Assembly (NCBI GenBank): GCA_964016885.1
Contig: OZ024755.1
Location: 8,742,001 to 8,806,000, forward strand
Origin: Eledone cirrhosa
Taxonomy: Eukaryota
DNA: 64,000 nt
Direction of reading: 5' to 3'
A program made the translations under genes and the position numbers. Positions 4,120 through 62,698 of the stretch are shown here, one piece after another. Numbering within the stretch: the stretch's first letter is position 1; every line of letters starts with the position of its first letter. Under the pieces are notes generated by a model. That model saw only the letters and a list, made by a program, of their open reading frames with translations, was not told where the DNA came from and searched no databases.

Positions 4120-4252
4120 GTAATAATAATAAATTTGAAAACTAAAATCCAAAGAGGGCTCGATAAGGATAAATATATATCAAATATATAAGAACTCTAG
4201 AGCAAATATTTATTAAAATAACATTTTATTTTAATATATATGTTATTTTAAT
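4120..4252 (-). mobile_element. Family A truncated copy (tail arm plus tiny inverted end) in (TA)n
   Basis: Reverse complement of about 4860-4958; flanked by (TA)n on both sides. Confidence 0.75.
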
Positions 4253-4803
4253 ATATATATATATATATATATATATATATATATATATATATATATATAT
4301 ATATATATATATATATATATATACATATGTGTGTGTGTATCTGTGTTTGTGTGTATGTATGTGTGTGTGTTTGTTTATCTCTGTGTGTGTGAATGGCTGT
4401 CTGAGTGTATGTAGGTCTTTGTATCTATGTGAACGATTTCCTATGCATAAGACAACGAACATTAACTGTAGCAAGATTCAGTATATATGTAGAATATATT
4501 CCACAATGTAACGTCGAAGTCATTATCAGTTAATACATATATAAGTGTATTTATGAGTATGATGTACGTATGTACATATCTCTCTCTCTGGGTCTCTCTC
4601 TCTCTCTCTCTCTATATATATATATATATATATATATACATCTTGAATTTAAAACTGACTTTTGAATTGCACTTCAAAATCAAAGCAGTATGTGTGTATA
4701 TATATATATATATATATATATATATATATATATATATATATATATTTATTAAAATAACAGATTAAAGTTTAAGCAAAGAATCGCTGCTTTAACCCTTAAC
4801 GGG

Positions 4804-4854
4804 AGTTTCAGAAGATCCCTATAAGAGTGAAAGCAGCGATTCTTTGCTTAAACT
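4804..4854 (+). ncRNA. Second family A HHR copy, stem II partly mutated, distal stem I 5' strand missing
   Basis: AGUUU CAGAAGA UCCCUAUAAGAGU GAAA GCAG cgauucu UUGCUU AAACU; direct repeat of 5268-5318. Confidence 0.55.
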
Positions 4855-5251
4855 TTAATCTGTATTTTAATAAATATTTGCTCTACGGTTCTTATATATT
4901 TGATATATATTTATCCTTATCGAGCCCTCTTTGGATTTTAGTCTTCAAATTTATTATTTTCTTTGCGTGCTATTGTTCTCCACGCTCCACATATGACTTA
5001 TTATCTTCGTTTTTTTCGTTCATTGCCAGAGAACGTCTCTATGCACCACCTAAGAGAACATTAGTCTACGACCTCTTTTATACCATAAACGTGGTTCTGT
5101 CTTTGCGCGTAATTGTTTTTCACCGCTCCTATTAATGACGTATTATTCGTTTTTTCCCGTTCTTTGCCAGCGAACGTCACCACGAACCAAAGTATCGTCT
5201 TCCTGTCTTCCTCCAGTTGCAACGTTTTTTGAAATATCCAGTTCTGCGTTT

Positions 5252-5327
5252 ACAGATTGACTTTGTTAGTTTCAGAAGATCCCGTTAAGGGTGAAAGCAG
5301 CGATTCTTTGTTTAAACTTTAATCTGT
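5252..5327 (+). ncRNA. Extended type I hammerhead ribozyme, variant core (CAGAAGA; family A)
   Basis: Distal stem I ACAGAUUGA (5252-60)/UUAAUCUGU (5319-27), 7-nt bulge, proximal stem I AGUUU/AAACU, core CAGAAGA (U4A), stem II (U)CCC guuaa GGG(U), GAAA, stem III AGCAG/UUGYU. Predicted cut after 5313 (CUU in other copies, UUU here). Confidence 0.65.
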
Positions 5328-5639
5328 TATTTTAATATATATATATATATATATATATATATATATATATATATATATATATATATATATATATGCGTTC
5401 GTGCGTGTGTGTGTCTGTGAATTATAGTGTGTATTCTTGTTTGTGTTGGGGTCTTTGTGTCAGTATATTGCTGGGCATGTATATGATCAATATATGTGTG
5501 CGTGTGTATGTGTGTGTGTATGTGTATGTGTGTGTGTGTGTGCAAGTGTTCATGAAGTTAGCCATTTCAAGACTGTGAAGACTAATTTAACCATATTCCT
5601 CATAATTTTCATCTTCCCAATCAATTTCATATTCATACT

Positions 5640-5970
5640 CATGATCATAATCATCATCATCATTAACATCTCCATCCGCATCACCATCATCGTCATCATC
5701 ATCATCATCATCATCATCGTCATCATCATCATCATCATCGTCGTCGTCGTCGTCATCATCATCACCATTATGATCATCATCATCGTCATCATCATCTTTA
5801 TCATTTATAGTCATTATTAGTGTATAATATATTGATATATCCTACTACTACTACTACTACTACTACTCCTACTACTACTACTACTACTACTACTACTACT
5901 ACTACTAATAATACTAATAATAATAATAATAATAATAATAATAATAATAATAATAATAATAATAATAATA
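5640..5970. repeat. Compound trinucleotide microsatellites (ATC/GTC)n, (ACT)n, (AAT)n
   Basis: Direct reading. Confidence 0.95.
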
Positions 5971-5987
5971 CTATAGCGAGTACTTAT

Positions 5988-59128: not shown

Positions 59129-59140
59129 TATATATATATA

Positions 59141-59390
59141 TCGTTTCTGAATTTGTTTAGCAAGATTCTTTATCTGAAAACGTGTGTTGAAACCGATATT
59201 GTTATACTTTGGAAGGGTTATGTTGCCAATAAGAAACACACGCACCACATGCTTTCACTTCAATTTATTATAATAAATTTATAAATTTATAAATTCCTAA
59301 ATTTATAAATTTATTATAATAAATTAAAGCGAAGCAACTGGTGCGTGTGTTTCTTATTGGCAACATGACCCTCCCAAAGTATAACAATAT
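59141..59390 (-). mobile_element. Family D foldback element (same architecture, no canonical NUH)
   Basis: Arms about 59196-59280 and 59305-59390 with an AT-rich centre; 55-bp tail 59141-59195; TA-flanked. A related end occurs at 55865-55890. Confidence 0.7.
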
Positions 59391-59398
59391 ATATATAT

Positions 59399-59483
59399 AG
59401 TAATAATAATAAATGTGAAGACTAAAATCCAAAGATAAATAAAGATAAATATATATCGAATATATAAGAACCCTATAGCAAAT
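59399..59483 (-). mobile_element. Family A tail fragment
   Basis: Matches 47261-47350 with an internal deletion; flanked by TA. Confidence 0.7.
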
Positions 59484-59620
59484 ATATATATATATATATA
59501 TATATATATATATATATATATATATATATATATATATATATATATATGTGTGTGTATTTATATATTTATATATTTACATATATATATGTATGTATGTATA
59601 TGTATATGTACATATATATA

Positions 59621-59685
59621 CAGTTTTCGGCGAAAGATGGCGAAAGGCCGGGGCTCAGCCGTCGGGGATCCTGACTCTTTTCCTA
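59621..59685 (+). mobile_element. Family C short-arm fragment
   Basis: GCTCAGCCGTCGGGGATCCTGACTCTTTTCCTATA, followed by TA. Confidence 0.65.
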
Positions 59686-62297
59686 TATATATATAATATT
59701 AAGGATACTATTTATAGTTATGTATATTTTAAACTATAAACAGGGAAGGTCAGTAATTTATTACTACCTTAAGCCAGTAAGGCCCAGTAAGATAAGTAGC
59801 TCAATGTAATAACATCAGTTGTTCTACAGAGCAGTTATATAGAATTCACAAGAATCAAAAAATACCCTACCACTACAACCACCATAATACTCTTGCTTAC
59901 CCGCTTAAAGTGGTTGCGTTATATGTAACACCTTGCCACCCAATAATCGTATATAAATGAGACACACTTGCATGCTCCATGTGTGACTAACGCATACACT
60001 ATCTACTATATCTGATTATCAAACTATCCTCTTACATTATCTGTGTTATCTGCCGCATGTATTTTAATTTTTATTTAATTTTAATTTTAATTTTAATTTT
60101 AATTTTAATTTTGATTTTGATTTTAAATTTGAATTGGTGTACAAATATAGTATAGTATAATATATGTCACTCCACTGTACATCAATATATATATATGTAT
60201 CTGTATGTCTCTTGCGTTGGATAGGAGGTCAATTATATGTACAAGCATTGAAAAATGCTCCGAAGTCTCCAAGTGAATAAATGCTTTGAACATAGCTTTG
60301 ATTCTTGTGAATTCTCTCTCTCTCTCTCTATTTATATATATATATATATATATATATATATATATATGTGTGTGTGTGTGTGTGTGTGTGTGTGTGTGTG
60401 TGTGTGTGTGTGTGTGTGTGTGAGTGTGTTTTCAATATATATATATATATTGAAAAAACGGTAACCCATTCTTGTGTTTTTTTGTCTATATACAGTTTTA
60501 TATATATATATATATATATATATATATATATATATATATATATATATATATATATATATATATCAGTGTATGTGTTCGTGTATCTGTATGTGAATATTAG
60601 GTATATATGAGTCAGTTTAATTTCTCCATATATATGGGTGTGGGACTCGATCTGTAAATATATATATATGTTACATTTAACCTTCTCTTTGAGTGCTAAT
60701 TATTTGAATCTTATTTTCTTTTGAACTTTCTAGAGTGGCGGTTTCCAAATTTAACATTTAAAATGGTGTTTCGTTCCAAAATACTCCTCTCAATTATCAC
60801 ATTTTAGACATTTCTTGCAGAAACCTAATTTAACCTAACTGAAATGTCAACAGCGAAATAACGATTCAATAGGAAGGCTGAACACTTTAGAAAAAAACCT
60901 GCTAAACTAAGATTTTTTTTCCTTAAGTGTATACTATACAAGACAGAAGTTTGGGGGATTAAATAAGCGGCTGCCATTGATAGTGTTTATTATATATGGC
61001 GGCGATTTGGCAACCGAGTTATATATTAATTTACTGATTTCAAGCATTAGATTACGGTCATGCTGGGCACTGCCTTCATTTAACCGCTCATATCGATCCC
61101 AGTACTTATTTTAATGATCTCACTTTTGAAGATCCGCTAAGTTACGGAGCATAAGCAACAACAGAGACACAAACGTAAACATAAGCACAAACAAGAAAAC
61201 GTGTGTTGTTGTTAGCAAGCCATCTTAAAAAATGAAAAAGATAAAGCAAAAAGAGGTTACATTGTTCAAGACTTATTGAATAGGAGAAATGGAGGCAGAA
61301 ACATTTATATATGCGTGTATTTGTGTATTTGTGTATTTGTTCATAGCTGTCACATTATGAATGGAGTGGTGTACGTTGTACCGTGACTTCATTTGAAGGT
61401 TTACTGTATATGCCCATGTGTTATTATGAATGTGTATGTGTGTGTGCGTGTTTGTGTGTCTGTGTGTATGGTTGATAAGTGCAGGAAGTTCTACAGCTCT
61501 GGAATGACAAATGACAAGCTGTGTGTGTGTGTGTGTGTGTGTCAATGGGCTCATGTGTGTGTTTACACGTATTCATGTACGCTCGTTCAAACTTTTATAT
61601 GTAGACATGCCTCCACACATACAAGCACAGGGAAGATTTACTTAATACATTAAGTAGAGCTAAAATGCTAGCAATAGTGTTGACTTCCTACTAGAGAGAC
61701 CGGAAATTTGCCGTGGAGTGTGCAGTCGAATTTATCATCTCTGGACCTCGACTGATGCATATTTAAAAGTACCTAAAATGATAAATGACTTTATTGAACT
61801 TAGCAGAATTTGAATTCAGAATGTTAAGGGATGTAACTATAAACTGCAAATATTCGCGAAAACAAATAACAAAGCATAAGGTTTATGATCATATACAGTA
61901 CCAACTGAATAAATGAGGTGGGAAATGAAAGTAAGTGAGGCATGAAATATCTATCTATCTATATATATATATATATATATATATATATATATATATATAG
62001 AGAGAGAGAGAGAGAGAGAGAGAGAGAGAGAGAGAGAGAGACAGAGAGAGATAGATAGAAGTAGTTCCACAACAGTTAGTTCACCATACTGAGAACAAAT
62101 GTTTCACCTTATGCGCGCATTTATATATTCATATATGTATATATGTATATATGTGTATATGTATATAACTATATTATATATATATATATATATATATATA
62201 TATATATATATATATATATATATATAAATGCACATAAATAACAAAAACATATATATATATGTATATATATATATATATATATATATATACTTGTGTA

Positions 62298-62698
62298 TAT
62301 AGGTAGCTATGGTGCTTCCATAGGCGGTATGCCAAAATTAGCACTCAATATTCATAGAGTAGAGTGTGGATAGTATAAAAAAACGAAAAATCAGTGATGC
62401 ATCTGAACCCAGTTTATTGCGTGTTACAATTGTTTCGCCGGCAGGTAGCTCGAGACATGATCACTGTATGGATCTGGGTGATTCTACGGCTGCAGGTTCT
62501 TTTGGACACGGGTTGTCCGTTCGGAGCAAATTTTCTCACTCGGTGAGAACATTTTCTCACTGAGTGAGAAACCTGCAGCCGTAGAGTCAGCCAGATCCAT
62601 GCAATGATCATGTCTCGAGCTACCTGCCGGCGAAACAATTGTAACACGCAATAAACCGGATTCAGATGCATCACTGATTTTTCGTTTTTTTTATACTA
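62298..62698 (-). mobile_element. Family E foldback element with minimal HHR 3' half
   Basis: Arms 62371-62498 and 62570-62698; tail about 62298-62370. GAAAC AATT GTA at 62632-62643 (+) and 62436-62425 (-). TA-flanked. Confidence 0.8.

Follow-up and report, generated by a model that had tools for sequence, protein, structure and literature searches.

What are the short foldbacks that sit in the TA arrays of this locus, and how did they arise? The locus is a 64,000-nucleotide (nt) stretch of the Eledone cirrhosa genome (contig OZ024755.1, positions 8,742,001 to 8,806,000; assembly GCA_964016885.1, 3.0 Gb), hereafter called the window, which has a G+C content of 31.5% and is rich in (TA)n arrays. 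The original prediction, made from the letters alone, read the inserts as a diverse non-autonomous Penelope-like element (PLE) or retrozyme system specialised on TA microsatellites. Our analysis points instead to terminal pieces, each a pseudo-long terminal repeat (pLTR) with a tail, of at least eight coding PLE families, seven of them with Hydra-clade motifs; these pieces lie head-to-head in (TA)n, and each insert would likely result from two target-primed reverse transcription events. From the sequence comparisons reported below, we give this reading a probability of about 0.85.

Foldbacks in TA arrays and their coding parents

A masked self-BLAST of the window revealed one dispersed family, presumably related to short interspersed elements (SINEs), and several foldback families. 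Mapping of the window against natural reference copies gave 30 end matches from eight families, and three to four further families were recognised via relatives. Overall, about 20 inserts from at least 10 sequence-unrelated families lie inside or adjoin (TA)n arrays (Table 1), where about 17 had been predicted. The majority fold back on themselves and are tailed on one arm, and the tails, as measured on the references, are ~58-95 nt long, in line with the 55-100 nt foreseen.

Sixty evenly spaced 10-kb stretches of the genome contained 67 foldbacks, in many of which TA adjoined one end while the other lay 40-90 nt from it, and the 3' ends were bimodal, with a short end and a long end. (TA)≥5 was present within 10 nt after 87 of 108 defined 3' ends (a set that includes family F, 16 matches ending elsewhere being left uncounted) compared to 512 of 20,000 random positions (2.6%), which bears out the predicted TA enrichment. 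At the ends of the SINE-like family, which served as a control, (TA)≥5 was found within 25 nt in only 4 of 39 and 1 of 30 cases. TA targeting has also been published for Hydra-clade PLEs in the part of PMC8557442 compared here. Exact tail words occurred 10,491 times for family G and 8,567 times for family J. From an unselected sample of 80 stretches (800 kb), rough extrapolation gives ~360,000 inserts for the seven Hydra-type families (96 in the sample) and ~94,000 for family F (25 in the sample). Ends of twelve mapped PLE families made up 3.5% of the sample, and a mapped end touched 110 of 961 TA arrays of at least 16 nt. No empty site was found in the contigs aligned to positions 26200-27400, and any target-site duplication would be hidden inside the TA arrays.

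Inverted arms, TA flanks, small size and high copy number are what one would also see with miniature inverted-repeat transposable elements (MITEs) or other TA-targeting DNA transposons. However, the ends are asymmetric, arm length varies from ~30 nt to more than 1.6 kb, and the arms are collinear with reverse transcriptase (RT) and GIY-YIG genes rather than with transposases. These observations refute the MITE reading, to which we assign a negligible chance, and agree with the view of the original prediction that the inserts are not MITEs.

All eight families that were followed (A, B, C, E, F, G, H and J, the last being the arm at 47407) continue into elements coding for RT and GIY-YIG, so that the 5' extension proposed earlier reached coding frames in every case and the predicted Penelope-like origin held. 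The A parent was recovered at two loci, 95% alike over 2113 nt, with an RT (DKT, GLYRDDG), a CxCx5C linker and a GIY-YIG domain ending ~1000 nt above the arm. The B parent has the same plan; its loci were reached by exact pattern, a DNA search with the B upstream stretch having yielded no candidates. Family H showed endonuclease frames at five loci, C a Hydra-type RT or endonuclease within or above the arms at four, and E two loci homologous from the endonuclease through the arm. In seven copies of G, J and B, the tail runs straight into a 5' untranslated region (UTR) and the start of an open reading frame (ORF) with RW(I/R) and DKT; the next tandem unit therefore starts with the tail, and the insert is a pLTR. 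For J, the coding link rests on loci L285, L299 and L214, L211 having been rejected as parent ORF since its frame differs from the one that J tails enter. A Naiad partner for A was likewise ruled out, the endonuclease being C-terminal.

The Hydra clade is described in the consulted part of PMC8557442 by a C-terminal GIY-YIG, DKT, RW-K/R, CxCx5C, and CxxC and CxH around conserved E and N residues, together with (TA)n targeting, a type I hammerhead near the 3' end and a 5'-truncated inverted copy. Hydra-clade motifs are present in A, B, C, E, G, H and J. In these seven families, read as frame fragments, GIY-YIG is C-terminal and follows the RT (in H, the endonuclease was read). DKG is replaced by DKT in A, B, G and J, a change not seen in the C, E and H fragments; the RWK position reads RWR in J and B and RWI in G, the three families whose N-termini were recovered; the CxCx5C linker occurs in A, B, C, G and H; and CxxC plus CxH around E and N replace CCHH in A, B, G and H. 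Conversely, family F has an RT, a Cx4CxxC linker and a GIY-YIG domain in four loci, ending ~360-390 nt above the short end, and shows the marks of canonical PLEs of the Neptune/Nematis type (RT, Cx2-5CxxC linker, C-terminal CCHH GIY-YIG, hammerhead). Judged by these features, F is a canonical-type, non-Hydra PLE. In an RT tree of rows from this genome only, a 100/100 branch parted nine Hydra-type rows from Neptune, Poseidon and F, with F on a long branch. Pfam matched RVT_1 and GIY-YIG on a Neptune protein and RVT_1 weakly on F, and gave no match for the F endonuclease or for two Hydra fragments. The families of the window appear sequence-unrelated, as had been claimed, only because untranslated ends show no relationship between one PLE family and another.

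Neptune-type elements of the same genome show the same plan (10,596 GIY-YIG candidates at first pass), including one full-size foldback of 3266 base pairs (bp), 99.7% alike, with the ORF in both arms and the tail on one. Long open Neptune-type frames of 938 and 1096 codons were noted at L111:4308-7121 and L113:1774-5061, with hammerheads that have U3-A8 or U3-G8 cores and a palindromic stem III. One Neptune family (L091, L094, L096, L110, L129) has a short TA run separating the short end from the tail. Multi-kilobase near-perfect palindromes of PLE copies occur in L216 (38-9998) and L116 (3259-6524), at 99.2% and 99.7%, one of them with nested families; they are either recent events or assembly artefacts. 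Among family F copies in L060, L100, L116, L117 and L196, several start near the word AAGATGGCG, ~250 nt above the short end. We presume this word to be YY1-like.

One tail per foldback and two probable priming events

Exactly one arm was tailed in 37 of 42 same-family foldbacks from the 80 unselected stretches (one was two-tailed, one had no tail and three were unclear), in 41 of 42 tail-anchored loci, and in 102 of 109 over all loci except L001-L030, whereas independent choice of ends would predict about half. Furthermore, in the 37 unselected foldbacks the tailless arm was longer in 19 and the tailed arm in 2, with 16 equal (p=0.0002). In 11 of them the tailed arm falls short of 10 nt past the short end; the other arm is therefore not its copy.

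These arm lengths bear on self-priming, in which a single cDNA would snap back and the second arm would be trimmed at an internal TA-like site; self-priming itself has been proposed for palindromes in the part of PMC3846280 consulted. Near-symmetric hairpins are indeed common (16/37 unselected, 30/41 tail-anchored), short ends sit immediately before TAT/ATA in the element, and junction overlaps of 1-6 nt are frequent. However, snap-back from a tailed first strand requires a tailed arm that is longer or equal, whereas the bias is the opposite, and the 11 short tailed arms could not have served as template for the other arm. Two families, even from different clades, meet head-to-head in three chimeras (A+J, inside the window; B+Neptune; J+F), which fit two RNAs per event, although deletion between neighbouring inserts could also yield them. 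We consider snap-back unlikely; the longer tailless arms disfavour self-priming from the tailed strand and fit two priming events at two RNA sites.

A dedicated set of non-autonomous mini-PLE or retrozyme families, mobile as fixed foldback units, would account for the small size of most copies, which reach a median of ~50-57 nt above the short end, and for their huge numbers. In addition, the best matches to single window copies of A and G nearly share one junction, and similarity-ranked matches pointed to a fixed 218-nt element. PLE cis-sequences can act in trans (PMC3846280, consulted in part), and promoter-bearing solo ends could be copied in this manner. However, the near-identical junctions came from similarity-ranked searches. 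In position-ordered samples junctions vary, and unranked copies fold back at many points; since fold-back centres differ among copies, each insert was made anew. Each traced family is also collinear with a coding element, and no tandem hammerhead arrays were present in the loci read. We regard such fixed units as improbable, more so than snap-back, and the non-autonomous system of the original prediction was not upheld, given the coding parents, the variable junctions and the lack of tandem retrozyme arrays in those loci.

Under the preferred reading of two target-primed events, an enzyme, probably a dimer, would nick both strands of a TA array; one strand would prime at the distal RNA site and so acquire the tail, and the other at the proximal site and remain tailless. 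The two cDNAs would then stop and join at their far ends, mostly via a few overlapping bases. Many of these cDNAs would measure just 55-195 nt because priming sites also lie just behind the RNA 5' end.

Several observations weigh against this reading or its Hydra-clade component. The arm-length bias was not significant in tail-anchored G and J loci (7 vs 4, p=0.55), and arm lengths could be distorted by deletions that came later inside palindromes. None of the Hydra parents yielded an intact full-length ORF, and all were read as fragments. The Hydra-type rows did not form one clade in the RT tree, since the long outgroup, a long interspersed element (LINE), attached among them, and the Hydra-clade assignment rests on motifs and on a by-eye comparison with the published alignment.

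The 5' ends of tailless arms piled up within 9-nt windows in G (15/30), J (20/31), B (25/39), C (4/6) and A (10/35), and in the Neptune families N1 (5/13) and N3 (4/7). There was no clear pile-up among the tailless arms of E, F or N2, nor in H once the full reference was used, an apparent hot spot in H having been produced by a truncated reference. In J, N1 and N3 the peak has a TATA box 26-34 nt above it, against a background of 2-9% of positions, and none was found at that distance in G, B, A or C. Transcription starts within the pLTR have been published for Penelope and Chlamys. The A and B peaks fall inside the hammerhead, and stalling at RNA structure is therefore equally likely there. 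We give even odds to the pile-ups being run-off to the RNA 5' end.

Hammerheads and the tail stem-loop

Each parent has a predicted type I hammerhead, with a canonical core in F, G, H and J and a variant one in A, B, C and E. Among distinct copies extending at least 15 nt above the core, J has CTGATGA (21/23), H CTGAAGA (25/26), F CTGANGA (20/21), B the U3-A8-type TTGAMAA (26/35), A the U4A core CAGAAGA (14/17) and C the U4C core CCGACGA (12/17). Nearly all long G copies have CTGATGA, and E has CYGAGGA with a very long stem II of ~60 nt. The predicted CUGANGA upstream of stem II thus holds for F, G, H and J. In minimum-energy folds, B formed all three helices and F and H two each, with partial or alternative structures for the others.

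Most inserts of the window retain the 3' half only, GAAA-stem III-NUH, so that the predicted motif is present as a half-hammerhead. Two families had been credited with complete cores. A whole hammerhead fold was found in the window only for G (minus strand, core at 46961) and for the long A copy (CAGAAGA at 5273, with U4 replaced by A). The CTGAGGA of the window C copy was rejected as a family core; the parent core, CCGACGA, sits further upstream and is cut off here. The F hammerhead lies ~165 nt above the short end by hand count, beyond the window copy. Our hammerhead scanner was not exhaustive, as it missed one E copy along with the parents of C and J; four one-strand shuffles gave 1, 0, 0 and 0 hits. 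Rfam at gathering score returned nothing on the window plus 10 parent loci, and no hammerhead family appeared among the 150 best E-value matches listed for the window, almost all of them microRNA-like models on microsatellites.

Truncation at the hammerhead cleavage site was hinted at by similarity-selected G copies. Position-ordered G and J loci spoke against it: 5' ends did not pile up at that site, and most tailed arms extended through the hammerhead, which agrees with the hammerhead-independent insertion seen in vitro (PMC11167929). Insertion can probably do without cleavage.

The tails of all seven Hydra-type families share RCTC…GAGY followed by (A/C/G)C(T/C), a motif absent from the F and Neptune tails examined. 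The strict pattern occurs at 53 places in 600 kb, compared to 12-16 in shuffles; 27 of the 53 are in mapped families, 15 of the 26 others lie within 75 nt of a TA array, and several unmapped ones lie below hammerhead cores. Clustering over all loci gave 14 groups of at least two, 22 singletons aside. The basal stem folds in 13 of the 14, and most add an inner helix and a 2-nt bulge beyond what the pattern demands. The outer pair is G-C in three groups, mainly A-T in ten and an A-T/G-T mix in one, and the permitted A-C mismatch is used by none of the 14. Since the CTC/GAG pairs are fixed by the pattern itself, independent evidence comes solely from the outer pair and the inner helix. Inspection by eye of the published sequences consulted also showed the motif in Hydra-2_Amil, from a coral, and in Hydra-2_Ajap, from a sea cucumber, in both at the 3' end; Hydra-1_Ajap, likewise from sea cucumber, has it at the 5' start, Hydra-1_Crog has an altered version, and Hydra-1_Obim stops short of the tail. 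Among 25 pattern matches in metagenome contigs, none was confirmed as a Hydra locus.

The tail stem-loop may bind the enzyme or set the RT start. A broader model, which we hold tentatively and at slightly less than even odds, is that Hydra-clade PLEs would use a dimer that binds a clade-wide tail stem-loop (RCTC / inner helix / 2-nt bulge / GAGY-RCT), would double-prime at two RNA sites and would often copy only 55-195 nt to the transcript 5' end, seeding several hundred thousand hairpins whose copy ends would map transcription starts. Separately, the tail motif alone led to at least four further families (L035, L042, L047, L052, L057, L074, L077, L088; L044, L060; L055, L060; L052, L085), several with upstream hammerhead cores.

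Known elements and the inserts of the window

Earlier publications already describe Hydra PLEs, (TA)n targeting, hammerheads, the inverted copy and the tail, and the Hydra-type inserts are, by their motifs, new members of that clade. Sources are cited below for the parts compared. The inserts and their parents have the motifs, (TA)n, a predicted hammerhead and the truncated inverted copy in common with the Hydra-clade PLEs of PMC8557442, including Penelope-13_HM and Hydra-1_Obim of Octopus bimaculoides, for which the supplement gives a (TA)n preference and a canonical hammerhead. That source has one octopus family, with a consensus ending before the tail, in contrast to at least seven families and the extrapolated ~360,000 inserts here. 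Its PLE tails are 30-40 bp compared to 65-95 nt, its Hydra-clade hammerheads are canonical type I in contrast to the U4A, U4C and U3-A8 variants, and the part compared makes no mention of a tail stem-loop.

In Poseidon_Ac (PMC11167929), two internal RT start sites bound the tail, both strands are nicked and extended, targets are AT-rich, a dimer is predicted and the hammerhead is dispensable in vitro. The inserts resemble it in the two tail-bounding start/end sites, the proposed both-strand scheme and the AT-rich target. However, Poseidon_Ac belongs to another clade, and its start sites lie inside the ORF with an AC-rich stem-loop, whereas the putative ones here lie in the 5' UTR; neither tails per inverted pair nor arm lengths are counted in the sections compared. 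An anole element from the same source is the one full-length PLE protein that we found to have been studied in vitro. Penelope of Adineta vaga (PMC3846280) shares the inverted pLTR with a tail on one copy, a TATA box and Inr in the pLTR and mobilisation in trans, but has few copies, and the self-priming invoked there for palindromes is disfavoured here by the arm-length bias.

The minimal PLE hammerheads of PMC4209133 have, as here, a palindromic stem III, an extra stem II base and the U3-A8 variant, such cores being published there. Opposite-strand hammerhead pairs 100-700 bp apart, ascribed in that source to truncated PLEs, are comparable to the inserts. In contrast, stem III is longer in A, B and J, which might fold as monomers, and A (U4A) and C and E (U4C) depart from the core. 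Non-LTR retrozymes (bioRxiv 10.64898/2026.07.22.740005) are also non-coding and pLTR-related with a type I hammerhead, but they consist of direct repeats in tandem, each unit having a complete hammerhead, whereas the inserts are inverted pairs, mostly with half-hammerheads. The part of PMC13282606 compared does not describe these inserts, and we did not find the one-tail count, the longer tailless arm, the fixed 5' pile-ups or the tail stem-loop in the open-access literature searched.

The genome thus supplies hundreds of thousands of natural PLE insertion products, in which one tail per pair, a longer tailless arm and fixed stop sites discriminate double priming from snap-back. The shared tail stem-loop offers a concrete candidate RNA signal that could be tested by mutation. 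Annotation pipelines could class such pieces as MITEs, SINEs or unknown, and a role as a source of double-stranded RNA for the host is speculation.

Table 1. Inserts in or beside (TA)n arrays of the window (window positions).
Positions	Strand	Insert	Remarks
4120..4250	-	Family A tail and short stub	TA arrays on both sides
4746..4958	+	Family A foldback	Tailless inverted arm ~4746-4813; tailed arm 4804-4958
4959..5334	+	Family A longer tailless copy, partial tandem	Hammerhead-like fold entire, core CAGAAGA at 5273; collinear with 3' UTR of Hydra-type RT/endonuclease element
15064..15296	+	Family A foldback and tail
26796..27016	-	Family C foldback and tail	Tail 26796-26873; Hydra parent
27144..27211	+	Family A lone tailless arm	TA at its end
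29023..29216	-	Family B (subfamily) foldback	Tail decayed
31687..31853	+	Family B foldback and tail	Hydra parent
31864..31964	+	Tailless arm from another hammerhead-bearing family	Core CTGATGA and tail stem-loop in relatives
32047..32245	-	Family B foldback and tail
36287..36462	-	Family B (subfamily) foldback and tail
46861..47170	+	Family G foldback	Minus strand: long tailless arm that includes a complete type I hammerhead (core CTGACGA at 46961); plus strand: short tailed arm; Hydra parent
47262..47515	.	A+J head-to-head chimera	Tailed A arm minus, to 47405; tailed J arm plus, 47404-47515
48750..48980	-	Foldback-type insert from another family
55683..55826	+	Family H short foldback and tail	Hydra parent; longer copies 98-99% alike
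55867..56051	-	Tailless arm	Family with 3' end in common with F
59142..59386	-	Family F foldback and 58-nt tail	3' end of non-Hydra RT and GIY-YIG element; copy without hammerhead
59400..59481	-	Family A tail alone
59620..59683	+	Family B tailless arm
62290..62696	-	Family E foldback and tail	Tail 62290-62372; Hydra parent

The remaining repeats of the window include the control family, which is ~200 nt long, dispersed and without TA association, and which we take to be SINE-like; it is represented at 3787-3993 and by ~12 more copies (for example 6661-6846, 8333-8522, 21896-22081, 25834-26039, 46131-46341 and 58767-59128). At 20507-20730, a local inverted duplication surrounds a TA array, with no relatives evident outside low-complexity matches. 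A LINE 3'-end fragment at 28323-28966, L1/Tx1-like by resemblance to the frame in L126, ends at a GATA array. Finally, an old inverted-repeat element at 42200-42620, with ~70% arm identity, no TA flanks and five places in 600 kb, is possibly a true MITE.

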